From a bacterium (lineage in GTDB: Bacteria; Sysuimicrobiota; Sysuimicrobiia; Sysuimicrobiales; Humicultoraceae), in NCBI GenBank assembly GCA_036004665.1, contig DASYRG010000008.1:10240-74239 (forward strand): a DNA stretch of 64,000 nucleotides, in the 5' to 3' direction. The first letter of the stretch is position 1. Each line of letters starts with the position of its first letter. The notes under the pieces were generated by a model. It was not told the origin of the DNA. It did not search any database and saw only the letters and a list, made by a program, of their open reading frames with translations. Below are positions 32,230-51,200 of the stretch, piece by piece. A program made the position numbers and the translations under genes.

Positions 32230-33796
32230 CGGCCTGACCGCGGACGGAGCGCCGTTCCGCCGGCTGCGCCGGTTGCCGCACCGCTACTGGCGCGGGCTTG
32301 TCATCCTGGCGGCCATCTACGCTCACGTGCTGGTGTTTCCGTCCCTCTATCGTATGCTCGGAGGCGGCGCCCCCGCCTTTGCCGTGGTACTGACGATTCT
32401 CTCTGCGGCGTTCTGGGGGATGAGAGGCGGGCTGCTCTGCGCCATCACGATCTCGCTGCTGGTCGTCCTCCAGCTGGACGTCCTGGAACGGCTCTCCGGC
32501 GTTGGGGCGATGTACCGTCAGGGCGCGCCAGGTGCCTTCACCTTGCTGCTCGTCGGTGCGACCATCGGGCGTCTGCGCGATCTCAGCGACAGGGTGCGGC
32601 GCGAGCTGGGCAAACGGCGGGAGGCGGAGGCGGCGGCGGATGCCGCCAACCGGGCCAAGAGCCAGTTCCTCTCCCGGATGAGCCACGAGCTGCGCACGCC
32701 GCTCAACTCCATTCTCGGCTTCGCTCAACTCCTGGACCTGGACCCGCTCTCACCCGACCAGCGCGAGAGTGTGGCCCACATCCTGCGGGGGGGCGAGCAC
32801 CTCCTGGCCTTGGTCAATGAGGTGCTGGACATCTCCCGGATTGAGGCCGGCCACCTGACCATCTCTCGCGAGGTCGTGCCGGTGGCCGCCGTTTTCCGGG
32901 AGGCTGTGGACATGATCCGCCCCCTCGCCGCGGAACGGTCGGTGCACCTCTATGAGACGACGGCGACGACCGCGTGGACCGTACAGGCAGACCGCCAGCG
33001 GGTGAAGCAAATCATGGTCAACCTGCTCAGCAACGCCGTCAAGTTCAACCGGGTCGGCGGGACGGTCACCCTCTCGTGTGAAGAGGTCCCCGGCCGGCGC
33101 CTACGGATTCAGGTGCGGGATACGGGGCGGGGGATTCCGGCCGCGGAGATGAGCCGCGTCTTCGTACCCTTCGCGCGTCCAGGCGCCGAGGCCGCCGGGG
33201 TGGAGGGAGTGGGCATCGGGCTGGCGCTCTCCAAAGCGCTGGTGGGGTTGATGGAAGGGAGCATCGGCGTCGCCAGCGTCGTGGGAGAAGGGAGTACGTT
33301 CTGGGTGGACCTCCCGCTCGCGGATGTCGACGCCAACGCCGCGTCATCTGTGGTACAGGAGGATCCTCCGCCTGGCGCCGCCCGCGCCGAGGACCGTGTG
33401 CCGGTCGTGCTTTACGTAGATGAGAACCCCGCCGATCTCGAGTTACTCAGATCCCTCGTCACCGGCCGCTTCCGGGTGCGCTTCACCACGGCCGCCAGCG
33501 CCGCCGTGGGACTGCAGCTGGCCGCAAGGCAGCGTCCCGATCTCATTCTGCTGGCAATGGACCTCCCCGATCTGACCGGCGAGGAGATGCTCTACCGGCT
33601 CAAGGCCCTTCCCTCTGCAGGGGCTACTCCGGTGGTGATGATCGGAGGGGATGCCACCTCGGGACAGATCGAGCGGCTGCTGGCCCAGGGGGTCAGCGGG
33701 TACATTCCAAAGCCCGTGAACGTGCGCCAGGTCGTCAAGGTCCTTGAGGCCGGGCTCGACGCTCAGGGAGACGGAAGAGGACGTGGAGGCCCATGA
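32171..33796 (+). CDS. hybrid sensor histidine kinase (membrane-HisKA-HATPase-REC)
   Basis: 4-5 TM helices, H-box FLSRMSHELRTPLNSILGFAQLLDL, ATPase boxes, C-terminal receiver. ATG 32171 would overlap the upstream gene by 59 nt; an in-frame TTG at 32273 is an alternative start. Confidence 0.8.
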   Translation: MATVPQAADVLRWLRTRAADGLTADGAPFRRLRRLPHRYWRGLVILAAIYAHVLVFPSLYRMLGGGAPAFAVVLTILSAAFWGMRGGLLCAITISLLVVLQLDVLERLSGVGAMYRQGAPGAFTLLLVGATIGRLRDLSDRVRRELGKRREAEAAADAANRAKSQFLSRMSHELRTPLNSILGFAQLLDLDPLSPDQRESVAHILRGGEHLLALVNEVLDISRIEAGHLTISREVVPVAAVFREAVDMIRPLAAERSVHLYETTATTAWTVQADRQRVKQIMVNLLSNAVKFNRVGGTVTLSCEEVPGRRLRIQVRDTGRGIPAAEMSRVFVPFARPGAEAAGVEGVGIGLALSKALVGLMEGSIGVASVVGEGSTFWVDLPLADVDANAASSVVQEDPPPGAARAEDRVPVVLYVDENPADLELLRSLVTGRFRVRFTTAASAAVGLQLAARQRPDLILLAMDLPDLTGEEMLYRLKALPSAGATPVVMIGGDATSGQIERLLAQGVSGYIPKPVNVRQVVKVLEAGLDAQGDGRGRGGP

Positions 33797-35805
33797 CGAC
33801 GGTGGAACGACCCAACGGGTCGAGACCGCCTCGCATTCTGGCCGTGGACGACCAGCCGGCTAACCTGACGCTGGTGCGGAAGATCCTCACCCCGGCGGGT
33901 TTCGAAGTGGGGGAGGCGCGCTCGGGCGCGGAGGCGCTGGCCACGGCCCGGGAGCGGCCGCCCGACCTCATCCTGCTGGACATGCACCTGCCGGACATGC
34001 ACGGTTTGGAAGTCCTGCGCCGCCTCCGTGAGAGCGCCTGGGGCGCCGGCCTGAAGGTGGTGGCGATGTCTGCCCTGGCCAATCCCGAGGATCAGCGTCT
34101 CTGGCTGCGCGCGGGCTGTCTGGGTGCGATCGAGAAGCCGATTACGGTGGCGACGTTCGTCGAGACCGTCATCGGGTTTCTCACCGCGCCGGAGGACGGG
34201 GCGGAGCAGCCCTTCGCCCTGCCTGGGGATTGGGCCGAACGCGACCGCCTGGGCGACATCCTCGTAGCGGCGGGGCTCACCTCCTCGGAGCAACTGGCCC
34301 GGGCGGTGGCGATCCAGCGGTCCAGCGGCAAACGCCTCGGCCAGATCCTCGTCGAACAGGGCGCCGTCTCCGAAGACGACATCGCCTGGGCTCTGTCTAG
34401 CCAGCTGGGCTACCCCTACATCTTTCTCACGCCGGACATCATCGACGAGGGCGCCGCGCGGGCGCTCCCGGACGACTTCCTGCGGCAGCGGCGCGTGCTG
34501 CCCATCCTGCGGTTTGGCGAGGAGATGACTCTGGCGATGGCCGACCCCACCGATCAGCGCACGGTGGACGAGGTGGCCGGCCGCACGCGGCTCGCCGTGA
34601 AGCGGGCGCTGGCGCTGGGCTCGAACATCGAGGCCATGCTCGACCGTCTCTTCGCGTGGCCGCGCGCCACCCCAGACGCCGAGGTCACCGCGGAGGCGCA
34701 ATACCTCCAGTTCCATCTGGTCCAGGCGCTGCAGCAGGACGCCGTGGAGATCCACTTCGATCCGGCCGACGAAGGGCAGGCCAGAGTGCGGTACCGGCTA
34801 TGGGGCGACCTGGTGGATCGAGCCGCTCAGCCGGCCGAACTGCACGCCGCCGTCCTCCGTCACCTGCGTCGCCTCACGGGCGCCGGAGAGGAGGCGGCCA
34901 CCGTCGCCGGAGCCCCTGTTATCGCGGCCGGCCATGACCTCTACCTTCGGGCGGCCTTCCTGCCCACCACGGCCGGCCCGGCCGCGACCGTGACGCTGTA
35001 TCCCCGCCGTGCGGAGGTCCCCTCTCTCCTGCCACTGGGCGTGCCGGAGCGGACTGTGGGCATCGTCCGCAAAGCCTTGGGGGCCGCGCGGGGGCTGGTC
35101 CTGGTGGGCTGCGCCGATGGCCTCCTGCGGTCCACGCTGCTGCACGCCCTGCTCCCGGAGGTGCAGCGGGGAAAGGTGTGGACGCTGGAGACGCTGCCGG
35201 TCTACCGCCGTCCGACGCTCAACCAGACCACGTTCGTGCGGCCGGAGGAGGCCCCCGCGCACCTGCGCGCTGCCGCGGCGGCGGGGGCGGACCTCCTCGC
35301 GCTCGACGACATCGGAGGGCGCGGGGGGCTAACGGCGGCCTGTGAGATCGGCGCTGCCCGGATGATCCTGGCGGCCCATCCGCACGACGAGACTGCCGGG
35401 CTTCTGGCGCTCCTCGTCGAGGCGGCGGGGGCGGCCTCGGCTGCGGCGGCGCTGCGCGCCGTGGTGACCGCCCGGCCCATCCGGCTGCTCTGCCCCTCCT
35501 GCAAGGAGGCGACGATACCGGAAGCCGCAGTCCCGGAGGCCGGACTCGCCAGAGGCGCCCACACGTTCAGCCCGCGAGGGTGCGAAGCCTGCGGCTTCAC
35601 CGGGTTCCGCGGCCGGCGCCTGCTCACGGCGCTGTGGCTCGTCGACGGGGACGACCGGGGGCTCCTGCGCGCCGGACAGACCGAGGCGCTGTACGACCGC
35701 GTGGCCCGGGAGAGCGCCGAGTCCCTGCGGGAGCAGGGCCGTTCACTGGTGGAGGACGGCCTCACCTCCCCGGCGGAACTGGCGCGGCTGATCGAGGACG
35801 CCTGA
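33793..35805 (+). CDS. REC-(MshEN/T2SSE_N)x2-degenerate GspE/PilB-like ATPase domain protein
   Basis: N-terminal receiver (ILAVDDQPANL...LILLDMHLPD). Two tandem RLGxxLVxxG...Q motifs (RLGDILVAAGLTSSEQLARAVAIQ; RLGQILVEQGAVSEDDIAWALSSQ) of the c-di-GMP-binding MshEN type. C-terminal GspE-like fold retains the CxxC...CxxC tetracysteine, but Walker A (LVGCADGLLRS), Walker B (LLALDDIGG) and His box (ILAAHPHDE) are degenerate. Confidence 0.8.
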   Translation: MTTVERPNGSRPPRILAVDDQPANLTLVRKILTPAGFEVGEARSGAEALATARERPPDLILLDMHLPDMHGLEVLRRLRESAWGAGLKVVAMSALANPEDQRLWLRAGCLGAIEKPITVATFVETVIGFLTAPEDGAEQPFALPGDWAERDRLGDILVAAGLTSSEQLARAVAIQRSSGKRLGQILVEQGAVSEDDIAWALSSQLGYPYIFLTPDIIDEGAARALPDDFLRQRRVLPILRFGEEMTLAMADPTDQRTVDEVAGRTRLAVKRALALGSNIEAMLDRLFAWPRATPDAEVTAEAQYLQFHLVQALQQDAVEIHFDPADEGQARVRYRLWGDLVDRAAQPAELHAAVLRHLRRLTGAGEEAATVAGAPVIAAGHDLYLRAAFLPTTAGPAATVTLYPRRAEVPSLLPLGVPERTVGIVRKALGAARGLVLVGCADGLLRSTLLHALLPEVQRGKVWTLETLPVYRRPTLNQTTFVRPEEAPAHLRAAAAAGADLLALDDIGGRGGLTAACEIGAARMILAAHPHDETAGLLALLVEAAGAASAAAALRAVVTARPIRLLCPSCKEATIPEAAVPEAGLARGAHTFSPRGCEACGFTGFRGRRLLTALWLVDGDDRGLLRAGQTEALYDRVARESAESLREQGRSLVEDGLTSPAELARLIEDA

Positions 35806-35832
35806 CGGGCGTCGGCTGATCGAGGGCGATTC

Positions 35833-36930
35833 ATGGACATCACTGACCTGTTGGTGCTCACTAAAGAACGCGGCGCCTCCGACCTGCACCTCACGGCGGG
35901 CGCCCCGCCGACGCTGCGCGTCCACGGCACCCTGGTGCGTCTCGACGGCGCGCCGCAGAGCCGGGAGCAGATCCACGGCATGCTCTACGACATCCTCACC
36001 GATCAGCAGAAGGCGCGCTTCGAGGCCACGCACGATCTGGACTTCTCGCTGGAACTCGACGGGGTCGGCCGCTTTCGCGTCAACGCCTTCATGCAGCGGT
36101 TGGGGGAGGGGATGGTGATGCGCCTCATTCCCGCCGACATACGCACCCTCGATGCGCTCGGCATGCCGGCGGTGCTGAAGGATCTGGCGCTGCGCGAGCG
36201 CGGGCTCGTCCTGGTCACCGGACCGACCGGGTCGGGGAAATCGACCACGCTGGCGGCGATCGTCCATCACCGCAACGAGGAGCGGGCCGACCATATCATC
36301 ACGATTGAGGATCCGATCGAGTACGTGCACGCCCCACGCAAGTGCAACATCAACCAGCGGGAGGTCGGTCCCCACACCGACTCCTTCGCCGCCGCCCTGC
36401 GTGGCGCGCTGCGCGAGGACCCCGACGTCATCTTGGTCGGGGAGATGCGCGACCTGGAGACGATCTCCCTGGCCCTCACCGCCGCCGAGACCGGCCACCT
36501 GGTCCTGGCCACCCTGCACACGAACAGCGCTCCGCAAACGGTCAGCCGCATCGTCGACGCCTTCCCCGCGTACCAGCAGGAGCAGATCCGCACGCAGCTG
36601 GCCGAGGCGATGCTGGGCGTGATCGCCCAGACGCTCATTCCCACCGCGGATGGCAAAGGGCGCGTGGCCGCCATCGAGGTGATGGTGGCAACCCCCGCGG
36701 TGCGCAACATGATCCGTGAGAACAAGACGCACCAGCTGCCCTCCGCTATCCAGACCGGCGCCCGCGACGGGATGCAGAGCCTCGACCAGCACCTCAAGAC
36801 GCTGGTGAAACTGCGCAAGATCGATCAGGCGGAGGCGCTGAAGAAGGCGGAGCACCCCGACGCCTTGCTGCAGGACCGCGCTCCCCTGGCCGGCGCCGAC
36901 ATCCTCGGACCCGCCCCCCGCCGGCCGTGA
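35833..36930 (+). CDS. pilT: type IV pilus retraction ATPase PilT
   Basis: GLVLVTGPTGSGKSTT Walker A, IITIEDPIEYVH Asp box, ILVGEMRD Walker B, LTAAETGHLVLATLHTNSA His box. Confidence 0.9.
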   Translation: MDITDLLVLTKERGASDLHLTAGAPPTLRVHGTLVRLDGAPQSREQIHGMLYDILTDQQKARFEATHDLDFSLELDGVGRFRVNAFMQRLGEGMVMRLIPADIRTLDALGMPAVLKDLALRERGLVLVTGPTGSGKSTTLAAIVHHRNEERADHIITIEDPIEYVHAPRKCNINQREVGPHTDSFAAALRGALREDPDVILVGEMRDLETISLALTAAETGHLVLATLHTNSAPQTVSRIVDAFPAYQQEQIRTQLAEAMLGVIAQTLIPTADGKGRVAAIEVMVATPAVRNMIRENKTHQLPSAIQTGARDGMQSLDQHLKTLVKLRKIDQAEALKKAEHPDALLQDRAPLAGADILGPAPRRP

Positions 36931-37997
36931 CGCACATCGACGACCTGCTCATCAGCATGGAGGCGCACGACGCCTCCGACCTCTACCTCAAGACCGGATC
37001 GCCGCCTGTCTTGCGCGTGGCGGGGACGCTCCGGCCGGCCGGGGAGACGCCCCTCTCCGACGAGGCGATCCTGCGGCTGGCAGAGGAGATGATGACCGAG
37101 CGCCACCGCCGCGACTTCGAGGAGCGCCGCCGCGCTGACATTGCCTATACCTCTACAACGCTGGGGCGCTTTCGCGCCAACGTCTACGTCCAGCGGGGCT
37201 CGCCCGCGGTGGTGATCCGCCGGGTGCGGAGCCAGATCCCGTCCTTCGAGGAGCTGCGCCTCCCGCCGGTCGTCGCCGACCTGGCCCTCGCCCCGCGCGG
37301 ACTGGTGCTGGTGACCGGGCAGACCGGATCGGGCAAGTCCACGACGCTGGCGGCGATGGTCGCCCACCGCAGCCGCGAGCGGGCCGGGCACATCGTCACG
37401 ATCGAGGATCCCATCGAGTTCGTGCACGCCGACGCCGCCAGCCTGGTCAGCCAGCGCGAGATCGGCACCGACTGCGAATCCTACAGCCTGGCGCTGCGGG
37501 ACGCCCTGCGCCAGGCCCCTGACGTCATCCTGATCGGGGAGATCCGCGACGAGGAGTCTGCGACGGCCGCCGTCCATTTCGCCGAGACCGGCCACCTGGT
37601 GCTCTCCACGCTGCACTCCACCAATGCCAGCCAGACCCTGGAGCGGTTGCTGCACTTCTTTCCTCCGGTCGCCCACGTGGGCGTGGCCCTGCAGCTCTCC
37701 CTCAACCTGATCGGTCTCGTCTCCCAGCGTCTCGTCCCTCTCCCCGACGGGACGGGGCGCGTGGTTGCCGTGGAGGTGTTGCTCTCGACGCCGCGCATCC
37801 GCGAGTTGCTGCGCAACGCCGACCTGGCGGGTATCCGCACGGTGATGCAGTCGGCCGCCGGCATTCAGGAGGGGATGCAGACCTTCGACTACGCCATTTA
37901 CCAGCTGATCCAGCAGGGGCTGGTCGACGTCGAAGCGGCGATGGCGGCCGCGGACAGCCCCAACGATCTCCGGTTGCGGTTGAAGGGGCTGCGCTGA
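36927..37997 (+). CDS. second PilT/PilU-type pilus retraction ATPase
   Basis: GLVLVTGQTGSGKSTT, IVTIEDPIEFVH, ILIGEIRD, ETGHLVLSTLHSTNA. GTG overlaps the pilT stop. Confidence 0.9.
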   Translation: MTHIDDLLISMEAHDASDLYLKTGSPPVLRVAGTLRPAGETPLSDEAILRLAEEMMTERHRRDFEERRRADIAYTSTTLGRFRANVYVQRGSPAVVIRRVRSQIPSFEELRLPPVVADLALAPRGLVLVTGQTGSGKSTTLAAMVAHRSRERAGHIVTIEDPIEFVHADAASLVSQREIGTDCESYSLALRDALRQAPDVILIGEIRDEESATAAVHFAETGHLVLSTLHSTNASQTLERLLHFFPPVAHVGVALQLSLNLIGLVSQRLVPLPDGTGRVVAVEVLLSTPRIRELLRNADLAGIRTVMQSAAGIQEGMQTFDYAIYQLIQQGLVDVEAAMAAADSPNDLRLRLKGLR

Positions 37998-38081
37998 AGA
38001 CGCTCTCTTCCGTCTGATCCGTCGCTACCCAGGCTTGTTTTTCCGGTAGACGTCGCTGAAGCCCCTCTGAACTGTTCGGCA

Positions 38082-38109
38082 TTGACATACGAACATTTGT
38101 TCGTATACT
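38082..38109 (+). promoter_or_regulatory. sigma-A promoter (TTGACA-16-TATACT) with embedded Gram-positive LexA (Cheo) box CGAACATTTGTTCG
   Basis: TTGACA at 38082-38087 and TATACT at 38104-38109. The 16-nt spacer holds the inverted repeat CGAAC-ATTT-GTTCG (38090-38103), matching 12/14 positions of the Cheo consensus CGAACRNRYGTTYC. ATG of the downstream gene is at 38133. Confidence 0.55.
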
Positions 38110-38132
38110 GGGCGTACCGACAGGGCCAAGAG

Positions 38133-38759
38133 ATGAAGGAGTTGCTTCCTCCACCAACCGTCGCGCAGGGACTGGTTGTCCTGACAGGGCCTGATGCCTG
38201 TTTGACGGTGGGACTGCTGTTGGCGCTGCAGGCAGAGATCGAGCGGCGCCCGCTGCTGGTGATCGACGGCGCCAACGCGTTCGACCCCTATCTGATTTCC
38301 ACCATCGCCCGGCGGATCGGCCTCGCGCCGGCGGCGCTCCTCCGGCAGATCCGCATCTCCCGGGTCTTCACCTGCTATCAACTGGAGGCGCTCCTGGACG
38401 AACGGTTGCCGCGCGTGCGTGAGCGGTTCGATCCCTACGGGCTCTTCCTCTCGGGCCCGCTGGAGGCGCTGCTCGACGAGGAGATCCAGCGGGAGGAGGC
38501 GGTGCGCGTCTTTCGCCGGATCCTGACCGCCCTCGACCGCGTGCGGGAGTGGCCCTGGACCGTCGTTGCCGCCTGCCCTGATACAGAACCTCCGCCGCCC
38601 GGGCGGGAGTGGTTCCTCCCTCAGATCCGGCGGCGGGCCGATCAAGTCTTCCGGGTGACGGTAGAAGAGGAAGGGTGGCGGATCAACGAGGAGGCGGGCG
38701 GCGGCAGCTGGCTGTGGCAGCCGCAGGTGGGCGCGCTCGTGGCGAGGAGGTGGTGGTGA
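38133..38759 (+). CDS. SulA/ImuA-like RecA-fold protein with degenerate P-loop
   Basis: GLVVLTGPDACLTVGLLLALQAEIERRPLLVIDGANAFDP...LRQIRISRVFTCYQLEALL follows the SulA/ImuA family pattern (P-loop-like GxxGxxxxT without the Lys; WIDPxxxFxP-like segment). The TTG at 38082 in the track ORF is actually the -35 element. Confidence 0.6.
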   Translation: MKELLPPPTVAQGLVVLTGPDACLTVGLLLALQAEIERRPLLVIDGANAFDPYLISTIARRIGLAPAALLRQIRISRVFTCYQLEALLDERLPRVRERFDPYGLFLSGPLEALLDEEIQREEAVRVFRRILTALDRVREWPWTVVAACPDTEPPPPGREWFLPQIRRRADQVFRVTVEEEGWRINEEAGGGSWLWQPQVGALVARRWW

Positions 38760-38762
38760 CCG

Positions 38763-39143
38763 ATGGGACGGACCGTCGCTACGATGACGCAGGTGGTCGA
38801 CCAGGAGGCGGCCAACTTCGGCCAGTTCCGCCGCGCCCTGCGCAAGGAAGACCAGGAGATCTTCGACCGCCTCTTCGCCGCCGCGCGCCACCACGCCGCG
38901 CCGGCCGCCTACCAGTCGCACGCGTCGCCCTTTGAGACCATCCTGCTGGCGATGCTGCTCGAACTGAGCAAGGCGGTGGTGGGCCTGCAGCGCCGGCTGG
39001 TGGAACAGGAGCCGGGTGCGCCGCTGCCGGAGCGCACCGGGCCCGCGCTGTCGGAGCCTGCCCTGCCCGCCGCCCCACCGCCGGCCTCGCTGCCTCTCGC
39101 CGGAGGGGGGCAGCGGCGGCTGCGCACGCGCAACCCGCGGTGA
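38763..39143 (+). CDS. hypothetical protein, 126 aa, Pro/Ala-rich C-terminus
   Basis: ATG is 4 nt after the upstream stop and 10 nt before the PolB start. Codon usage matches neighbours. No recognisable motif. Confidence 0.5.
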   Translation: MGRTVATMTQVVDQEAANFGQFRRALRKEDQEIFDRLFAAARHHAAPAAYQSHASPFETILLAMLLELSKAVVGLQRRLVEQEPGAPLPERTGPALSEPALPAAPPPASLPLAGGGQRRLRTRNPR

Positions 39144-39152
39144 TGGCGGCTG

Positions 39153-42100
39153 GTGCGCGGCTGGCTCTTCGACGTCTATCCCTCGGGAGAGGGGATGACA
39201 CTGTGGTTTCTGGACGAGGACGGCCACCCCCACCCGCTGCGCACGGAGTACCATCCGGCCTTCTACGCTGCGGGCCCCGCCGCGGCGGTGGAGCGCCTCT
39301 CCCGTGACCTGACTCGCCGGCGCATCGCTGCCGACCTCACGCCGGTCGTCCGGCAGGAACTGTTCAGCGGCGCCGAGCTGCCGGTGATGCGCGTGGCAGT
39401 CCACCGGCCGCTGCTCTTTCCCACTGCGGTCGGGTGCGCCGCGGCGATTCCGGCCCTTACCCTCTATACCTGCGACCTCAGCGCGGCGCAACTCTTCCTC
39501 TATGAGAGCGGGTTCTTTCCGCTGGGCCGGTACGAGGTCGCGGCGGCCGACGGCGTCCTGCGCGAGGCCACACCGCTGACCCACCCCGAAGACATGGAGT
39601 ACGAACCCCCGCCGCTCCTGGTGATGCGGATGCGCCTCGACGGCGACCCGGTCAACCCCAACCACGGGTGGCGTGGGGAGCTGGAGGTGGCGGTGCCGGG
39701 GGAGCACGTCGTCCTCAGCGGAGAGTACCCTGAGGATCTCTGTCGCAGCCTCAACCGCCTGCTCGCCCGCTATGACCCCGACGTCCTGCTGACCGACTGG
39801 GGGGATCCCTTTCTCATCCCCCGGCTCCTGCGGCTGAGCGCGCTGGCGGGCGTCCCCCTCGCCTTCAACCGCGACCCGCGCGCCGGCATCGGCGTGCGCC
39901 GGGGCCGTTCCTACGTCACGTACGGCAAGACAGTCTACCAGGCGGGGGCGCACATCCTGGCTGGCCGCTGGCACCTCGACCTGCGCAATTCCTTCATCTA
40001 TACGGAGTCGGAGATGGCCGGGCTGCTGGAGATCGCCCGACTGGCCCGCCTGCCGGTGCAGCGCCTGGCCCGCACCTCCACGGGCACCGCCATCTCCTCG
40101 ATGCAGCTCGCGCGGGCCGTGCAGACCGGCATCCTCGTGCCCTGGCACAAGAGCGAGCCGGAGGGGTTTAAGACCGCGGCGGAGTTGCTGATCACCGACA
40201 AGGGGGGGTTGACCTACCAGCCGCTGGTGGGCGTCTACGAGGGAGTGGGGGAGCTCGACTTCTCCTCCATGTACCCGACCATCATGGCCCGCTTCAACGT
40301 CTCGCCGGAAACGATCAACTGTTCTTGTTGCGCGATTGCCGAGCCCGTGCCGGAGATCGGCCACGCCATCTGCCAGCGCCGACGTGGCCTGGTCCCGCAG
40401 GTGCTGGATCACTTGCTGGTGCGGCGCGAGTATTACAAGCGGCGCAAGCGGGAGACGGAGGGCGCGCCGCGCGCCGTATACGACCAACGGCAGACGGCGC
40501 TGAAATGGTGTCTCGTTACCTGCCTTACAGGGGAAACGCTCGTACTACATCGCCGGGACGGTCGCTGGAAAGTAGCGCCTATCGGGGAAATCGTTGATTC
40601 GTATCTTCCCGGCGAGCAGTGGGGAACTCAAGCAGTCACAGAACTAACGGTGGGCGGAATTGATTCGGAACTTCGAGTCTGTGCTAAGCCTGTGAAACTG
40701 GTGATGAAGGCGCTAGCTCCCGCGAAGATGCTTCGGGTCAAGATGCGGTGGGGACGGGAATTGCTAGTGACGCCCAACCATCGATGCTACGTTCTCCATG
40801 GCGGTCGGCTTCGAGTAGTGCGCGCCGATGAGTTGCATGTGGGTGATTGGGTTCCTTTGGTAGGGTCGCTGGAAGGCCTTCTTGGGCAACTCGACTCAAA
40901 GATCGATGTCATACGTGCCTTGCAGCAGAGTCTTTCTGCGGAAGATCAGGACCGCTGGCGAGTATTTGGGAGACCAGTGCAAAGAGTTGTCAGAGAGCGC
41001 TATAGAGAGTTCGCAGCCCGGGCCAGAGACAAGTACGCTGCGAAAACGATCTGGAACTGGCGGGAGTACGGTTATTTGCCGCTTTCCTTCGTTCAACCGG
41101 AGGACTTCAGGATCGAAGAGCGGCCCGAGATCCGCCTGGGGCGGGGCAAGTTGTCCGGAGGAGTAATCAGACAGACCCCGTCTGTCGTGGACGTGGATGA
41201 GGACCTGGGGTTTCTCCTTGGTTTCTTCGTGGGAGATGGAAGTGCGACTGGAACGATGATTCGCTTCGATGTTGGGGCGAACGAAAGAGAACACCTGCCG
41301 AGGTTGCGACACATCTTGCTTCGGAAGTTTCGCATCAACGCGCGTGTCTATCGTGAGCGAAGGGCAAGAATGTACGTCCTGCAGGCAAACAGTGTGGCTC
41401 TTGTCGAGGTGTTCAAGCATGCGTGCGGAGTGGCAGGATCGGCGCGAACGGGCAAACTGCGTATCCCCGATGTTATTCTGAACGGCCCGCGCGATGCTCA
41501 GAGGGGCTTTGTCCTGGGGTTAATAGCCAGCGATGGAAATGTCAGCCGAGTTCGGGATTTTGTCAGCATAGCGAGTGCCAGTCGGTCCTTTATAAAAGAA
41601 CTCGGGTTTCTGTTCTCCTTGCTGGGTGTGGATTACCGACTGGGCTTCCATGGACGTCTGCACAGCATTCAGACGCGCAACATGGGCGAAACTCGGAAGA
41701 TTCTGTATGAGGGCGCCCCTGTTTCTCGAAAGCATCTCAGGGCGTTACGCTATCGCGAGTCAGTAACCCCGGTCCCGCGACTTCCGCAGATACCGGTGCA
41801 TCCCAGTGGGATATATGAGTTCAGCCGTGCAGTCCGGGTGACACGAGCGCCTCGGGTGTCCAGTCTCGAAATGATTTCTCAAGCGACGGCGCATGTGAAG
41901 TTGAACCAGGTGGTTCAGCGAAGCGGACGTCTTGGTGAGGAGCTTCGAGGCCGGCTGCCTGATTTCAGGCGGCTACTTGAATCGCCCATGATTTTCGCGC
42001 CCGTGATTTCAATCGAGGAGACGCTCTCGCCAGGGCAGTTTGTGTACTGTTTTCAGCTCAAGGATGAGCCACACGCATTTGTTGTTGAAGGAAATGTGTT

Positions 42101-42983
42101 GACCTCCAACAGTTTTGGCTACCTCGGGTACCGTAACGCCCGCTACGGTCGCATCGAAGCGCACGAGTCGACGACTGCCTATTCGCGCGAGATGCTGCTG
42201 CGCGCGAAGGAAGTTGCTGAGGCGCAAGGCTACCGCATGCTGCACGCCATCGTGGATTCCATGTGGCTGCAGAAGCCGGGAGCGGACCATCACGCGTACG
42301 AGACGCTGGCCCGCGACATCAAGCGCGTCACCAACCTCCCGGTCGCCGTCGAGGGCGTCTACGGCTGGGTCTCCTTTCTTCCTTCTAAAACACATCCCGG
42401 TGTGGGCGTGCCGAACCGCTACCTGGGGGTCTTCCAGGACGGTGAGACGAAAGTGCGTGGGATCGAAGTCCGGCGCTCGGACACCCCTGTGCTCATTGAG
42501 GAGATGCAGGCGCGAATGCTGCAGGAGATGTTTGCCGCGCCCACGATCGAAGCGTTGATCGTCCGCCTCCCCCGGATACTGGCCGTCCTGGAAGAGACGC
42601 TGGTGCGGCTGCGCGAGGGCTCAGTTCGTCCAGGCGAGCTGGCCCTGACGACCACGATCTCGCAAGAGGTCTCGGAGTACCGCAGCAACCACCCCGTCGC
42701 CGTGGCGGCGCGGGCCCTGGCCGCTGCCGGCATCCACCTCCATCCGGGGGAGGCGATTCAGTACGTCATCACGGATGCCGACGCCAAACTGGTGGACGAG
42801 CGGGTGCGGCCGCTGGCGCTGCTGGGGGCCGACTGGGTCTACGATCTGGAACGGTACGCCGAACTCCTCCTCCGCGCCGCCGAGACGGTGCTTGAGCCGT
42901 TCGGGTACACGGCAGATCGCCTCAGGGAGGAAGTCTGGCGGCCCCTGAGTGAGCGGAACGGAGGAGCGATGAGCGGACGATGA
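39153..42983 (+). CDS. archaeal-type family B DNA polymerase with degenerate exonuclease motifs, interrupted by an intein in motif B
   Basis: N-terminus WLFDVYPSGEGMTLWFLDEDGHP...HPAFYAA resembles the archaeal PolB N-domain. Motif A is LDFSSMYPTIM. After intein removal, motif B reads KWCLVT|SFGYLGYRNARYG. Motif-C region is LHAIVDSMW (IVDS in place of DTDS). Exo I (MRMRLDG) and Exo II (GDPFL) have lost their acidic residues. Confidence 0.85.
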   Translation: MRGWLFDVYPSGEGMTLWFLDEDGHPHPLRTEYHPAFYAAGPAAAVERLSRDLTRRRIAADLTPVVRQELFSGAELPVMRVAVHRPLLFPTAVGCAAAIPALTLYTCDLSAAQLFLYESGFFPLGRYEVAAADGVLREATPLTHPEDMEYEPPPLLVMRMRLDGDPVNPNHGWRGELEVAVPGEHVVLSGEYPEDLCRSLNRLLARYDPDVLLTDWGDPFLIPRLLRLSALAGVPLAFNRDPRAGIGVRRGRSYVTYGKTVYQAGAHILAGRWHLDLRNSFIYTESEMAGLLEIARLARLPVQRLARTSTGTAISSMQLARAVQTGILVPWHKSEPEGFKTAAELLITDKGGLTYQPLVGVYEGVGELDFSSMYPTIMARFNVSPETINCSCCAIAEPVPEIGHAICQRRRGLVPQVLDHLLVRREYYKRRKRETEGAPRAVYDQRQTALKWCLVTCLTGETLVLHRRDGRWKVAPIGEIVDSYLPGEQWGTQAVTELTVGGIDSELRVCAKPVKLVMKALAPAKMLRVKMRWGRELLVTPNHRCYVLHGGRLRVVRADELHVGDWVPLVGSLEGLLGQLDSKIDVIRALQQSLSAEDQDRWRVFGRPVQRVVRERYREFAARARDKYAAKTIWNWREYGYLPLSFVQPEDFRIEERPEIRLGRGKLSGGVIRQTPSVVDVDEDLGFLLGFFVGDGSATGTMIRFDVGANEREHLPRLRHILLRKFRINARVYRERRARMYVLQANSVALVEVFKHACGVAGSARTGKLRIPDVILNGPRDAQRGFVLGLIASDGNVSRVRDFVSIASASRSFIKELGFLFSLLGVDYRLGFHGRLHSIQTRNMGETRKILYEGAPVSRKHLRALRYRESVTPVPRLPQIPVHPSGIYEFSRAVRVTRAPRVSSLEMISQATAHVKLNQVVQRSGRLGEELRGRLPDFRRLLESPMIFAPVISIEETLSPGQFVYCFQLKDEPHAFVVEGNVLTSNSFGYLGYRNARYGRIEAHESTTAYSREMLLRAKEVAEAQGYRMLHAIVDSMWLQKPGADHHAYETLARDIKRVTNLPVAVEGVYGWVSFLPSKTHPGVGVPNRYLGVFQDGETKVRGIEVRRSDTPVLIEEMQARMLQEMFAAPTIEALIVRLPRILAVLEETLVRLREGSVRPGELALTTTISQEVSEYRSNHPVAVAARALAAAGIHLHPGEAIQYVITDADAKLVDERVRPLALLGADWVYDLERYAELLLRAAETVLEPFGYTADRLREEVWRPLSERNGGAMSGR
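40521..42110 (+). mobile_element. intein (530 aa) with LAGLIDADG homing-endonuclease domain, inserted at the pol-b site of PolB
   Basis: Begins CLTGETLVL (Cys1) after extein ...KWCLVT and ends ...VVEGNVLTSN followed by Ser+1. Two LAGLIDADG motifs (LGFLLGFFVGDGSA and GFVLGLIASDGNVS). Visibly lower GC than the flanking extein. Confidence 0.8.
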
Positions 42984-43013
42984 AGGAGCGAGCCGGGGAA
43001 GATTCTGCTGAGG

Positions 43014-44012
43014 CTATTCGGTGACGCTCTCCTGAGGTACCGAAGGCTCAGATGAGACGGCGTGGCCGAGCCGTTCGGCCAGCATCGTCTGGATCTCCCG
43101 GGCGTTGCGGCCGGACTGGCCGCGGAAGTGGTTGTTGAACATGAGATAGAGCCGCCGCACGTCCCAGGCCAGACGTTCAGCCGTCTCCGCCCATGGCGCG
43201 AGCTCCTCGGTCGAGTACTCGTAGTCGTAGGCCTGATTGGTGCTGACGCCCCTCTCCGCCAAAGCCGCGTTGCGCCCGTGGAAGCGGACCACGCTAAAGT
43301 CGGTGGTGGTCTCGACGGTCGGGGGTGGCAGGTAGCGGGCCTGGGCCAGGTCGGGGATGACGTAGGCGAACCCGTGCTCGCGCAGATACCCCATCAAGAT
43401 GGAGCGGGCCTTCCCCTGCAGCCAATCTTTATGGCGGATCTCGATCGCCACCGGCCAGTTCTCCAGATAGAGCGCCCAGGCGTCGAGATACTTGAAGAGC
43501 TCCTGCGTGAAGGGCTGTCCTTTCGGAAACTGAAAGAGCACGTAGCCCAGCCGGTCCCGCACCCGGAGGGCGTCGATGAAGGCCGCGAAGTAGTCCCAGG
43601 TCGCTGTGACGATCTCCTCGGGAAGGCGCATCGGAGAGATCGAGCGCTCTGCCTGCATCGTCCTCGGCAGAAGGACGAAGATGTCCCGAGGCAGCCGGTT
43701 GGGAGCGCTCTCGTGCCAGGTCAGCCAGGCAAAGGCCTTGATGGTGAACTGGAAAGGCGGTGCCACCGTCTCTGCCCACTGCACCGCGCGCTCCACCGGC
43801 TGGAGGGCGTGGTAGGTGGCGTCCACTTCGACCGCAGGGAAGAGCTCGGCGTAGTAGCGCAGTCGCGCGCGCGGCTTGGCGCGGACCGATTCAGGATAGA
43901 ATTCGCTGACGAAACTGGGGTCGGCCCAGGAGCAGGTACCCGTGTAGATCTGGCAGTCCCGGTGGAACAGAGGCGCCGCAGGCGCGCCCCCGGCGTCGGG
44001 GAACAGATTCAT
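43014..44012 (-). CDS. DUF72 (YecE-like) family protein
   Basis: GTCSWADPSF...FPAVEVDATYH...FQFTIKAF...YVLFQFP...LENWPVAIEIRHKDWL is the characteristic DUF72 pattern. Confidence 0.8.
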   Translation of the reverse strand: MNLFPDAGGAPAAPLFHRDCQIYTGTCSWADPSFVSEFYPESVRAKPRARLRYYAELFPAVEVDATYHALQPVERAVQWAETVAPPFQFTIKAFAWLTWHESAPNRLPRDIFVLLPRTMQAERSISPMRLPEEIVTATWDYFAAFIDALRVRDRLGYVLFQFPKGQPFTQELFKYLDAWALYLENWPVAIEIRHKDWLQGKARSILMGYLREHGFAYVIPDLAQARYLPPPTVETTTDFSVVRFHGRNAALAERGVSTNQAYDYEYSTEELAPWAETAERLAWDVRRLYLMFNNHFRGQSGRNAREIQTMLAERLGHAVSSEPSVPQESVTE

Positions 44013-44060
44013 CCTGGATTTGATAGTAGGGCAGCCGGAGGCATTTTCAAGCAGGTGCTC

Positions 44061-44708
44061 CTAGCGGGAAGGACTGGGGATGGGAGTGGGGGTGGGGCTC
44101 GTCGCGGGCGCCGGCGCAAGGAGGAGCTCGCTCGGGACAATCGTCGTCTCCCACTGGGTGCACTGCGGAGGATCGGCGCACCGGTACCGGGGGATAAGGG
44201 TCCCCAGCTGGGCCTCGGTAGCCCCGTGCTTCCGATAGAATCCCAGGAAGGCTTTGCCGAAATCCGAGTCAGCCGAAAAGAAGGCGGCTTCTTTCCCCGA
44301 GACGCGCAGCGTCTGTTTGACATCGGCGGTGCAGCCCTGCCCCTCCAGTTGAGGCGCCTCTCGGAACATCAACATGGTGATGGAGAGCTCCACCTCAGCG
44401 TTTCCTGCGGAGGCGGATTGGAACAAGTAGACACCGTCGAGGATCGGGACGGTGCCCCCGGAGGCGGGGAGGAGTACCTGAGACCTCAAGCGGCCTGTCA
44501 CCAGAACCTCCGCTGAGCCGTCCTTGTTGAAATCGGTTCGCACCATTTGAGGCGAGGACCAGTTCCCGAGCACATTCCGCGGTGGAGGCAGCGTACACCA
44601 TTTCAAGAGCGGTGGCGCGGGGGCCTGCGCGTGGGCCGGAGGCGTGGGGAGGAGGAGAACGAGGAACATGGTAAGGAGAAGGTGGGGTGTGCGGGCGGCG
44701 GCGATCAT
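44061..44708 (-). CDS. secreted hypothetical protein (signal peptide, Pro/Thr/Ser-rich C-terminal tail)
   Basis: MIAAARTPHLLLTMFLVLLLPTPPAHAQA signal peptide. C-terminus APAPATSPTPTPIPSPSR. ATG is revcomp 44706-44708. The N-terminal 98 aa of the track ORF are discarded. Confidence 0.5.
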   Translation of the reverse strand: MIAAARTPHLLLTMFLVLLLPTPPAHAQAPAPPLLKWCTLPPPRNVLGNWSSPQMVRTDFNKDGSAEVLVTGRLRSQVLLPASGGTVPILDGVYLFQSASAGNAEVELSITMLMFREAPQLEGQGCTADVKQTLRVSGKEAAFFSADSDFGKAFLGFYRKHGATEAQLGTLIPRYRCADPPQCTQWETTIVPSELLLAPAPATSPTPTPIPSPSR

Positions 44709-44758
44709 GAACAGCGTACGTCCGCTGGTTCCCTTCGGGAGGTGCTCCCGATCTCCTC

Positions 44759-45412
44759 TTACTTCACGAACGCCCGGCAGGAGCGGAGCCCGCTGCCGGC
44801 GGGGAGGGCGATCGTGTAGTTCTCCTCCTGATTTGACGCCACCGCGATGCCGATGACCAGACCCGCGCCGTCCAGCACCGGCGAGCCGCTGGCCCCGTAA
44901 TCCAAGGCCGGATCGATCACCATCATGGGAGCGGCGATGAGCCGTCCGCTGAGCGTGGCGGACTCGAGGAGGTGCATGATGCGGCCGGTGCTCACCTGCC
45001 ACTTCCGTTGCGGATAGCCGGCGATGGTGACCGTCTCGCCGACCGACGGCTCCCTGAAGGTCACCCTGTACTGGGGGGTTCCCGGCGGAAGCTGGGCCTT
45101 CACCACGGCCAGCCCGGCGATCTGCGTGCGGCAGGTGGGCTTGCCCTCTCTGGTCCCATCCGGTAAGAGGACCTGAACGCTCTGCGACAGGAGGTGGTCC
45201 GCGGTGACGATGGTGTCCCGCCCGACGACCACGCCGGTGCCGTATTGCAAGAGGGTTCCGCTCCGGCCGACCAGCGGCACAATGCCGCGCGGATCCGGCT
45301 GACTGAGGACCGCCGTCTGAGACTGGCCACGTGACGGTTTGGCCGCGAGAAGCAAGGTTAGAAGGAGAAGAACCAGCAGAGGTCCAGGAAACAACCGATT
45401 CAAGGCGCGCAT
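44759..45412 (-). CDS. secreted trypsin-like (S1) serine protease
   Basis: Signal peptide, then TADHL (catalytic His) and DYGASGSPV (GDSGGP-like catalytic Ser motif). Confidence 0.7.
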   Translation of the reverse strand: MRALNRLFPGPLLVLLLLTLLLAAKPSRGQSQTAVLSQPDPRGIVPLVGRSGTLLQYGTGVVVGRDTIVTADHLLSQSVQVLLPDGTREGKPTCRTQIAGLAVVKAQLPPGTPQYRVTFREPSVGETVTIAGYPQRKWQVSTGRIMHLLESATLSGRLIAAPMMVIDPALDYGASGSPVLDGAGLVIGIAVASNQEENYTIALPAGSGLRSCRAFVK

Positions 45413-48291: not shown

Positions 48292-51200
48292 GTGACGCTC
48301 CTTCCACCCGCCCGCTGGATCATCAAGCCTCCCGATCCCGAGCGCGCCGCCGCCCTCGCGGCGGACCTGTCGATCAGCCCTCTTACCGCCCAAATGCTGC
48401 TGAACCGAGGGCTGGCTGATCCCGCCGCCGCCCGCGTCTTCCTGCGGGCCGCCCTGGAGGATCTCAGTGAGCCCGCCCACCTGCTCGACCTTCCCCGGGC
48501 GGCGGAGGTGCTGCTGGCCGCGCTGGGAGGCGGGACGCGGATCATCATCTACGGCGACTATGACGCCGATGGCGTCACCTCCACGGCGATCCTGGTGCGG
48601 GGACTGCGCGCCCTGGGCGCCCGGCCGGAGGTCTTCATCCCGCGCCGGGACATGGAGGGGTACGGTCTCAACGGCGACGCCATCGCCCGCCTGGGAGGTC
48701 CGGGGTTGCTCGTCGCCGTGGACTGCGGGATCACGGCGGTGGACGAGGTCGCCCAGGCGGCCGCGCAGGGACTGCAGGTCATCATCCTCGATCACCACCT
48801 TCCCGGCTCAGCGCTGCCCCCTGCGGCGGCCGTCGTCGGACCGAAACGAGAAGGGCAGCCTGCGGTCACCCCCGTCGCGGCGTGCGGGCTCGCCTATCAA
48901 ACTGTCCGCGCGCTCTGGCGGCTGGCCGGGCGGGATGATCAGCCGGTCGACCTGCTGGATCTCGTCGCGGTCGGAACGCTGGCCGACGTCGTCCCCCTCG
49001 TCGGGGACAACCGGATCTTCGCCCGGCAGGGGCTGGCCAGGATGGCCGAGGCGCCGTCGGTAGGGATCGCGGCGCTGCTGCGCGTGGCCGACGTCGCGGG
49101 CGCGGTGCGGATCCGCGATGTCACCTTTGGACTGGCGCCGCGGCTGAACGCCGCCGGCCGTCTCGGCGACGCCACGGTGGCGGTGACGCTGCTGACCACC
49201 GACGATCCCGCCGAAGCCGCCGCGCTCGCCCGGACGCTCGACGAAGAGAACCGGAGACGTCAGGAGATCACGGAGGCGGTGCTCGCGTCCGCGTCCGCGC
49301 AGGTGGAGGAGGCTGGGTGGAAGGACGGGCCCGCCCTGGTGGTGGCTGGAGAGGGCTGGCACGCCGGGGTGATTGGCATCGTCGCCTCTCACCTCAAGGA
49401 GCGCTACAATCGTCCCGTCGTGATGATCGCCGTCGCGGACGGCGTCGGGCGGGGATCTGCCCGGTCCATTGAACCGCTGCCCATGGTGGACGCCCTCGGC
49501 GCGGTCGGCGACCTGCTCAGCCGCTTCGGCGGCCACGCCATGGCCGCGGGGCTGACGATCGCCGCGGAACGCATCGAAGACTTTCGCCGCCGCTTCACCC
49601 AGGAGGCGGGGCGCCGGCTCACTCCCGAGGATCTCGCGCCGGCCCTGACCATCGACGCGGAAGTGGACCTGCCCGCCCTCATCCCAGCGCTGGCGAGGGA
49701 GATCGAACAGATGGCGCCCTTCGGTCCCGGCAACCCCGAACCGCTGGTGGTCCTGCGCGGCCTGCGCGCCGCGGCGACGCGCGTCGTAGGCGACGGCCAC
49801 CTGCGAGTGGGCCTCACCGACGGGCGCGCGTTCGTCGACGCCATCGGATTCGCCCGCGGCGACGTCGCCGAACTGCTGGCGTTCACCGGCGCGAGGGTGG
49901 ACGTCGCCGCGGCCGTCGAGCTCGACCGGTGGGGGGAGGGAGAGCGGGTCTCGCTGGTGCTGCGCGATCTGAGCACGCCCGGATTGGATCTGGAAGCGGT
50001 GCTGGCGGACGGGGATCTGCTGCTGGACCGTCTCTTCGCGCGCGCGCAGGAGTATCTGGGGACGGGCTTCCGCGGCATCGAAGGCGCGTGGTCCTTTTAC
50101 ACAAAGGTCGCCGGTGTGACCTTCGAGGGACGGCAGGAGTGGCTGTCCTCGATCCGTCCGGGACAACCGCTGCATCTGGTCCGGCAGCCCTCGAATCCCT
50201 ACGATCCCCACGCCATCGCCATCCTGACCACCGAAGGGCGCCAGCTCGGCTTCCTCAGCGCCAGGATCGCGGGACGGCTGGCGCCTTCCATTGATGCGGG
50301 AACGCGCTACATGGCGACCGCCTCGCAACTGACTGGGGGCGGAGACCGTTCCTATGGGTTGAACGTCTTCATCCAGCGGGAGGAGTCCGCGGTCAGCGCG
50401 GACGGGATGGCCTGGTCCTCCTGGCGCCCCCTGCCGGTGGATGCCCTATTGGAGCGGCTGCGCATCCTCCTGCATGGGGGGCGGCCCCTCCGCCACGCGC
50501 AGTCGGAGACGATCGAACGGCTGCTCATCGAGGGGAAGGTAACGACAGCCTTGAGGCCGGGACGCCGCGGGGCGGTGACCGCGATGATGGCGGCTGCGGC
50601 CCTGGCGGCGCAGCGCGCGCGTCCCGTCGTGATTGCTCTCTCGCTGATCAGCCAGGTGGACCGCTGGTTCGAGACCTTCGGGCCGCTGCTGCGCGAGGTC
50701 GGCTTTCGCGTCTACCGCGCCCACGGCGCGCTCTCGCTGCGCCCCCAACAGCGGCTGGCCCGCGCGCTGGAGGAAGGGCGCGCCGATATCGTCTTGGCCA
50801 GCGCGGCGTGGCTCGCGCGGGGCGGGGTGGAGACGGTGCCGCACGGGCTGCGCTCGGCCGTGATCATCGCCGACGCCGACATGCCGGGCGAGACCGCCGG
50901 TGTTCTGGCGGCTGCCGTCTCCCCGCACCTCCCGCCTGGCGGGGGCCTGGCTCGCTTCCAGTGGAAGAGTGGTGCGTCTCACTCTGACGCGGCCGGTGAT
51001 CCGGATGGAGTCGGGGTCGTTCAGGACGGCTTCGTCAGGGCGAACCTGCGCCTGGTCGACCGGCGTGATGACGCAGACCATGAGAGCCTGCTGGCGGCGC
51101 TGGCCGCCCCCGATGAAAAGACGCTGATCTTCACACCACGCCGCGGCGACGCCGTCACGCTGGCGACGTCGCTGCGCGGCCGGGAGGGAATGGGCGCGGT

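Follow-up and report, generated by a model that had tools for sequence, protein, structure and literature searches.

The region 38082–42983 of the window (the whole stretch of 64,000 nucleotides (nt) of the bacterial contig DASYRG010000008.1 that was analyzed) contains three genes that encode iRadA, PPB2 and PolB2. The region very probably is a bacterial, Armatimonadota-type iRadA-PPB2-PolB2 operon, that is, a ‘PolB2 mutasome' of archaeal origin that has been wired into the SOS response of its host. The locus is a further example of an operon that has already been described rather than a new system, and all the features by which a PolB2 mutasome is defined at the sequence level are found in it. 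The additions to the literature are modest and consist of the conservation of a promoter operator in Armatimonadota-like loci, lineage-specific palindromes in other phyla and an intein in motif B of the polymerase. The published picture is unchanged by this locus; what is filled in is the regulation.

The association of PolB2 with an inactivated RadA and with arCOG07300 was described, for archaea as well as for several bacteria, by Makarova et al. 2014 (PMC4104785), who also noted that, in some bacteria, lexA is inside the same operon. The names iRadA and PPB2 were coined by Timinskas, Timinskas & Venclovas 2025 (PMC11791011); these authors proposed a single archaea-to-bacteria transfer, with the bacterial gene order always being iRadA-PPB2-PolB2, reported that lexA, DUF72 and SRAP are enriched near PolB2 operons, and modelled the PolB2:iRadA:PPB2 heteropentamer (1:1:3) as the ‘PolB2 mutasome', which they likened to Pol V and Pol zeta. 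Their models include an Armatimonadota complex with a ranking score of 0.84, and their supplement contains an Armatimonadota operon, MBI2973202-204, that is followed by DUF72. The first-pass annotation of the window, which was made from the sequence alone, suggested that the pairing of a RecA-fold protein with a B-family polymerase might be uncharacterized; this does not hold, given that the operon, its bacterial copies and the link to lexA are already present in PMC4104785 and that the mutasome is modelled in PMC11791011.

Gene order, promoter and operator

The genes for iRadA (38133–38759, + strand, 208 amino acids) and PPB2 (38763–39143, + strand, 126 amino acids, arCOG07300 family) and the PolB2 open reading frame (ORF) with its intein (39153–42983, + strand, 1276 amino acids, GTG start) are co-oriented and adjacent, with gaps of 3 nt between iRadA and PPB2 and 9 nt between PPB2 and PolB2. 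The three genes are probably co-transcribed, and their tight packing behind a promoter agrees with the first-pass annotation. When one genome was scanned for each species, 80 loci were obtained, belonging to Armatimonadota, Nitrospirota, Methylomirabilota, Ignavibacteriota, Bacteroidota and other phyla. The order iRadA-PPB2-PolB2 is found in 58 of the 80 loci and a different order in none, in agreement with the published gene order; the other 22 loci contain no PolB2 match, and 13 of these 22 lack PPB2 as well.

The operon is preceded by a sigma-70-type promoter, TTGACA-16 nt-TATACT (38082–38109, + strand), with TTGACA at 38082–38087 and TATACT at 38104–38109, which matches the consensus in 11 of the 12 positions and is the sole promoter-like site on the + strand in 36000–45000. 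The promoter spacer contains a predicted LexA (Cheo-type) operator, CGAACATTTGTTCG (38090–38103), which is an exact CGAAC-N4-GTTCG, the Gram-positive (B. subtilis-type) LexA consensus. A near-consensus promoter with a Gram-positive LexA-type palindrome in the spacer was precisely what the first reading of the sequence had suggested. The palindrome extends to ATACGAACA-TT-TGTTCGTAT (38087–38106) and so overlaps the -35 element by its last base and the -10 element by its first three. This is the single exact box in the 64-kb window, where ∼0.06 are expected from the base composition. Sites with at most one mismatch to the box number 3 in the window, compared with 2.8 expected, and those with up to two mismatches look like chance occurrences; no second full LexA box was detected near the promoter or, at two or fewer mismatches, upstream of the DUF72 gene, in 44000–44400.

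The conservation of the operator was surveyed in the window together with 30 Armatimonadota-like loci, 375,363 bases in total. This DNA contains exactly 30 exact CGAAC-N4-GTTCG sites, against ∼0.36 expected, and all 30 are located 35–159 nt upstream of the iRadA match, with none anywhere else. The single locus without a box is the one without upstream sequence, so that all 30 examinable promoters carry the exact box. The conservation of the box is put down to selection on its arms, rather than to recent common descent, because the iRadA proteins of the surveyed loci are only 41–84% identical and the spacer bases of the box vary.

The boxes occur in two promoter layouts. In the layout of the window type (12 loci), the arrangement is TTGACA-ta-box-TATAAT, with the operator within the spacer, and TTGACA and TATAAT are found at the equivalent place in eight relatives. 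In the second layout (18 loci), the arrangement is TTGACA...CCGAACAG-TGGTAnAGT, with the full box 8–11 nt 3' of the extended -10 element, over the likely start site; a clear TGnTAnnnT is present in 14 of these 18 loci. To judge by the promoter sequences, both positions of the box are repression-competent and correspond to classical sites of repressor action. An additional half-site is kept in each layout as well, namely GTTCGGCA 5' of the -35 element in the spacer type and CCGAACAG 5' of the extended -10 element in the second type (L005-L028). In the window, this is the GTTCG directly 5' of the -35 element (GTTCGGCATTGACA; 38074–38078, + strand), which is kept in 12/12 promoters of the spacer layout, with the bases 5' of it not conserved among the 12. 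One possibility is that the extra half-sites form a second, weak operator.

LexA is the probable binding protein because the box is identical to the Gram-positive LexA consensus. Alternatively, the palindrome could serve a different repressor or be a structural element, and the operon would then be outside the SOS regulon. There is no lexA nearby, and the 375 kb of related DNA contain no further exact box, so that no regulon is demonstrable. Nevertheless, this alternative appears unlikely: the box matches CGAAC-N4-GTTCG exactly, it is kept at operator positions in two promoter layouts despite the divergence of the proteins, and lexA itself precedes the operon in other phyla, as published. The survey offers cis-regulatory evidence that bacterial copies of the operon belong to the SOS regulon even where lexA is not adjacent. 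We found no paper that links a LexA motif to Armatimonadetes; operators and promoters are not mentioned in PMC4104785 or PMC11791011, and the paper on the SOS response of Bacteroidetes contains neither an operator-level report on the PolB2 operon nor a mention of polB.

The three proteins and the intein

The first gene encodes iRadA, an ATPase-dead, archaeal-type RadA/Rad51 core without the N-terminal domain. The protein is 45% identical to the catalogued iRadA MBI2973204.1 and shows weak matches to Rad51/RadA/DMC1 in Pfam and NCBIfam, and Pyrococcus RadA is retrieved from the PDB (E 8e-5) by a profile built from 20 homologues. The AlphaFold2 model of iRadA has a predicted local distance difference test of 88 and a predicted template modelling score of 0.88, and when it is compared with the PDB using Foldseek, the top 50 structures are all RadA/Rad51/DMC1 ATPase cores, with template modelling scores of 0.62–0.73 over the whole protein. 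At the Walker A position, the sequence is GPDACLT, in which Leu replaces Lys, and this is nearly invariant in the 20 homologues. The C-terminus (38700–38759) has the pattern W-x-W-x-P-x-[IV]-G-x-[LI]-x-x-RRWW, which is strongly conserved in Armatimonadota-type proteins and is unlike the QLxLF beta-clamp motif.

In the first-pass annotation, this gene was labelled SulA/ImuA-like. The RecA-superfamily fold and the lysine-less P-loop on which that label was based are borne out, but the similarity is to RadA/Rad51/DMC1, and membership in the SulA/ImuA family is ruled out, as neither Pfam nor NCBIfam gives a match to SulA or ImuA at E<=1 and the relatives, by sequence and by fold, are all RadA/Rad51/DMC1. 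The corresponding interpretation of the whole locus, an SOS cassette not reported before, in which a B-family polymerase takes the place of ImuB and DnaE2 beside a bacterial ImuA/SulA-type protein, draws on genuine resemblances: a RecA-superfamily fold without the Walker A lysine, as in ImuA, encoded in an operon behind a LexA box. It is nonetheless refuted on family membership and retains hardly any credibility, given that gene 1 is 45% identical to a published iRadA and that the trio has been described already. The observation that no ImuB or DnaE2 is visible was correct: genes 2 and 3 are PPB2 and PolB2, and DnaE2 is not present in the window, whose only two ORFs of more than 1000 amino acids are the PolB2 polymerase and a RecJ fusion.

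The second gene, initially described as a 126-amino-acid orphan, is anything but an orphan: it encodes PPB2, a member of the arCOG07300 family that has 491 homologues at E<=1e-3, is 36% identical to a published PPB2 and shares with all the homologues the invariant N-terminal MGRT. The structural model consists of three main helices and one short helix, which make up a helical core of ∼85 amino acids, followed by a disordered Pro/Ala-rich tail, and the fold match is SigR-like, as in PMC11791011. A local Pfam scan assigns gene 2 to no family; PF26485.1 is a precomputed annotation of the gene 2 homologues, and this model is evidently missing from the local Pfam library. The 126-amino-acid start is correct. 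The Joint Genome Institute gene call P0108 for the identical PPB2 is 119 amino acids long and apparently begins at Met8, which affects 38763–38783 and drops the MGRT arm.

The third gene encodes PolB2, which sequence comparison places in the archaeal PolB2/PolB3 lineage of B-family polymerases. The mature polymerase of 746 amino acids is split in the 1276-amino-acid ORF by an intein of 530 amino acids. PolB2 is 63% identical to the Armatimonadota PolB2 MBI2973202.1 (Timinskas et al. 2025 supplement), the spliced 746-amino-acid sequence matches Pyrococcus/Thermococcus PolB at E 1e-57 compared with E 1e-8 for E. coli Pol II, and the top NCBIfam model is NF004416. The N-extein (39153–40520, + strand) comprises a decayed exonuclease domain, the FxxA and DK motifs and motif A, and the C-extein (42111–42983, + strand) contains the rest of motif B, motif C and the thumb domain. 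The FxxA motif (F339-A342, nt 40167–40178, + strand) and the DK motif (D349-K350, nt 40197–40202, + strand), the latter seven residues past FxxA, are both within EPEGFKTAAELLITDKGG, and FxxA followed by D(K/R)GG is kept in 38 of 40 related PolB2 loci. The FxxA element resembles the oligomerization element of Rad51 and is a putative iRadA-binding site; the Rad51-oligomerization-like element in PolB2, the D(K/R) motif and the MGRT arm of PPB2 have all been described (PMC11791011).

The exonuclease domain of PolB2 appears to have no active site. In the alignment with Pyrococcus PolB, the Asp of ExoII is replaced with Leu (GDPFLIPRL versus GDNF[D]FPYL), the position aligned with ExoI has no DxE, and ExoIII is not alignable, the alignment of the N-terminal part being weak (E 0.004). 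Motif A is DFSSMYP (nt 40257–40277, + strand), and motif C reads IVD in place of DTD (nt 42249–42257, + strand): ‘rmlhaIVDsmw' is aligned with ‘kvlyiDTDgly' of Pyrococcus PolB, so that the first Asp of DxD is lost. The same region is LVD in the published Armatimonadota entry (PMC11791011 supplement). Together with the exonuclease decay and the absence of an ATPase site in iRadA, the loss of the first catalytic Asp could mean that PolB2 is catalytically dead and that the trio has a structural role, for example, in the restart of stalled forks or in the regulation of replication, as first suggested by Makarova et al. 2014 (PMC4104785). This appears improbable because Sulfolobus Dpo2, which has IID at the same position of motif C, is nevertheless an active polymerase that extends mismatches and is needed for damage-induced mutagenesis (PMC7390963, PMC8764526), and because the PolB2 of the window keeps the Asp of motif A, the Lys of motif B and the second Asp of motif C.

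Motif B is split, KWCLVT | C...N | SFGYLGY, by a LAGLIDADG intein of 530 amino acids (precursor residues 457–986; 40521–42110, + strand). This intein and the lost first Asp of DxD were both overlooked in the first-pass annotation. The matches to LAGLIDADG_3 (E 2e-12) and intein_Nterm (E 9.7e-11) are above the cut-offs of these models, with the score for Pfam Intein_splicing being below its own. Cys1 (CLTGE...), TPNH, the block-F-like DEPHAF, the terminal Asn and the +1 Ser (...TSN|S) are present, and both LAGLIDADG motifs, LLGFFVGDG and VLGLIASDG, keep their Asp residues. The GC content of the intein is 55.8%, compared with 69% and 66% in the N- and C-exteins, respectively. The insertion point aligns with KILAN|SYYGY of Pyrococcus PolB, which we take to be a classical site of intein insertion in the replicative PolBs of archaea; homing elements known from these enzymes thus also invade this repair polymerase.

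The insertion could, in principle, have inactivated the polymerase gene and turned the operon into a decaying remnant: 1.6 kb of DNA with foreign GC content interrupt an essential motif, and the intein has no penultimate His. We consider this very unlikely, however, given that all 1276 codons form one open frame and that none of the splicing elements Cys1, TxxH, block F, terminal Asn and +1 Ser is missing. Furthermore, an intein with the same N-junction is found in two of the related loci, L015 and L024. In L024, where both junctions are visible, the intein is 40% identical to that of the window, has a GC content of 50% compared with 62% in the extein, and ends with Gly-Asn, likewise without the penultimate His. 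The same-site inteins suggest a maintained allele that is predicted to be splicing-competent, and the absence of the penultimate His probably characterizes this family of inteins rather than indicating decay. Inteins are mentioned neither in PMC4104785 nor in PMC11791011 or its supplements. Three terminator-like matches on the + strand lie inside the intein; internal terminators were dismissed as the total count of such matches, 4, equals that in shuffled sequence (3.8).

Predicted mechanism and known mutasomes

The PolB2 mutasome of the window is predicted to function as follows. In the undamaged cell, a LexA dimer bound to CGAACATTTGTTCG between the -35 and -10 elements would block RNA polymerase; upon DNA damage, RecA-stimulated self-cleavage of LexA would free the promoter, and a single tricistronic mRNA would be produced. 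The PolB2 precursor would then splice out the 530-amino-acid intein, and motif B would be rebuilt. The mature PolB2, which would have no proofreading and carries IVD in place of DTD, would bind iRadA via FxxA, the MGRT arm of one subunit of the PPB2 trimer would enter the cleft between PolB2 and iRadA, and the complex would extend distorted or mismatched primer ends past lesions, resulting in error-prone translesion synthesis. The last three steps are proposed because of the published models, which suggest the stoichiometry of the complex, and of the genetics and biochemistry of Sulfolobus Dpo2, from which the translesion activity is inferred by analogy. The functional idea that came out of the first reading, an exonuclease-dead, multi-subunit, Pol zeta-like B-family translesion polymerase under an SOS-type operator, is supported, and none of the four alternatives discussed above is favoured by the data.

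Several points weigh against an SOS-controlled translesion polymerase at this locus. We know of no experimental study of any bacterial member of the PolB2 family. In the window, lexA was not found by tblastn with the B. subtilis and E. coli LexA sequences as queries (best E 0.08). The penultimate His that is usual in inteins is missing from this one, which ends with ...TSN, and its splicing competence is assumed. A beta-clamp motif is not evident in the C-termini of iRadA or PolB2, and none is given for the Armatimonadota entry in the table of PMC11791011.

Comparison with characterized systems puts the locus closest to the published bacterial PolB2 mutasome, with which it shares the three families and their order, the MGRT arm, FxxA, D(K/R), [IL]xD, the decayed exonuclease and the DUF72 neighbour; the differences are that the copy in the window has the motif-B intein, that lexA is not adjacent and that SOS control is indicated by the promoter operator. 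The PolB2/Dpo2 operon of Sulfolobales encodes three homologous proteins and is a damage-inducible, proofreading-free translesion extender, but its gene order is PPB2-PolB2-iRadA (S. islandicus), its regulator is Orc1-2 rather than LexA, and its clamp is PCNA rather than the beta clamp.

Among the bacterial systems, the E. coli Pol V mutasome (UmuD'2C-RecA) is similarly LexA-repressed and combines a polymerase with a RecA-family subunit, via an oligomerization-like motif, and with a small subunit that inserts an N-terminal arm; in contrast to the PolB2 mutasome, its catalytic subunit belongs to the Y family, RecA is active, UmuD' is a dimer, and neither the small subunit nor the polymerase is a homologue of PPB2 or PolB2. 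The imuA-imuB-dnaE2 cassette also consists of three LexA-controlled genes, the first of which encodes an ATPase-dead RecA-fold protein, but it relies on the C-family DnaE2 and the Y-like ImuB, and the family searches did not connect it with gene 1. Pol II of E. coli (polB) is a B-family, SOS-induced enzyme, but it is a single-subunit polymerase with an active exonuclease and only a distant relative of PolB2 (E 1e-8). Eukaryotic Pol zeta is likewise a multi-subunit, proofreading-dead B-family extender; this likeness is an analogy only, given that its accessory subunits Rev7, Pol31 and Pol32 are unrelated to iRadA and PPB2. To our knowledge, PolB2 mutasomes are the sole multi-subunit B-family translesion polymerases of prokaryotes. 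With a near-consensus promoter, a perfect LexA-type operator and intact partner genes, the locus is a clean test case, and the motif-B intein, if the proposed scheme is correct, makes protein splicing obligatory for the production of an SOS polymerase.

Other phyla and neighbouring genes

Outside the Armatimonadota-like loci, a lexA or lexA-like gene is located directly upstream in most of the Nitrospirota loci and in a few loci from other phyla, and the upstream regions contain palindromes that differ between the lineages. The palindrome is CCAAAC-N4-GTTTGG at about -156 in 7/9 loci of Methylomirabilota, ACGACA-N4-TGTCGT at about -97 in 5/14 loci of Ignavibacteriota/Bacteroidota, and TGTAACC-ATT-GGTTACA in 14/20 loci of Nitrospira, in the latter case 19 nt before an HTH_3-S24 repressor gene (as measured in L048). 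In our estimate, it is about as likely as not that every bacterial phylum with this archaeal-derived polymerase complex has independently brought it under the control of its own damage repressor; if this is what happened, the PolB2 operons are a natural series on the SOS rewiring of a horizontally acquired mutagenic module.

Two groups of loci contain only part of the module. Eight loci of Methylomirabilota/NC10 (L036, L037, L043, L046, L047, L054, L057 and L065) encode iRadA and PPB2, with no PolB2 within 8 kb, and the next gene encodes a conserved PA0069/Rv2578c-like radical-SAM protein that is 67–84% identical between the loci. The palindrome CCAAAC-N4-GTTTGG precedes 7 of these 8 loci, with L046 keeping the inner AAACA-N2-TGTTT alone. 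These loci may represent a polymerase-less variant of the module. The other group consists of the Nitrospira loci L048 (6871–8573), L051, L052, L058, L066, L069, L070, L072 and L075, in which iRadA is accompanied by an HTH_3 + peptidase S24 gene of the phage-CI-like, ‘non-canonical LexA' type, without PPB2 and PolB2. In L048, this pair of genes may belong to a mobile element, given the adjoining genes for PIN, primase-zinc-finger and DUF3631 proteins.

In the window, the gene immediately downstream of the operon (43014–44012, - strand) is convergent with it and encodes a DUF72 protein (PF01904, E 1.1e-49). A DUF72 homologue is found downstream of PolB2 in 18 of the 30 Armatimonadota-like loci, mostly directly and convergent, and most of the other loci end sooner. 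On the 5' side of the operon, 33793–37997 (+ strand) encodes a response-regulator-fused PilB-like ATPase and then two tandem PilT-like twitching-motility ATPases, identified from the translations only; these genes apparently have no relation to the iRadA operon. The RecJ fusion is encoded further downstream, at 48292–51858 (+ strand). In this protein of 1188 amino acids, a full RecJ exonuclease (TIGR00644, E 1.8e-143) is joined to a HIRAN domain (amino acids 601–675) and a RecQ-like helicase C-terminal domain (amino acids ∼911–1080), which is an unusual fusion.

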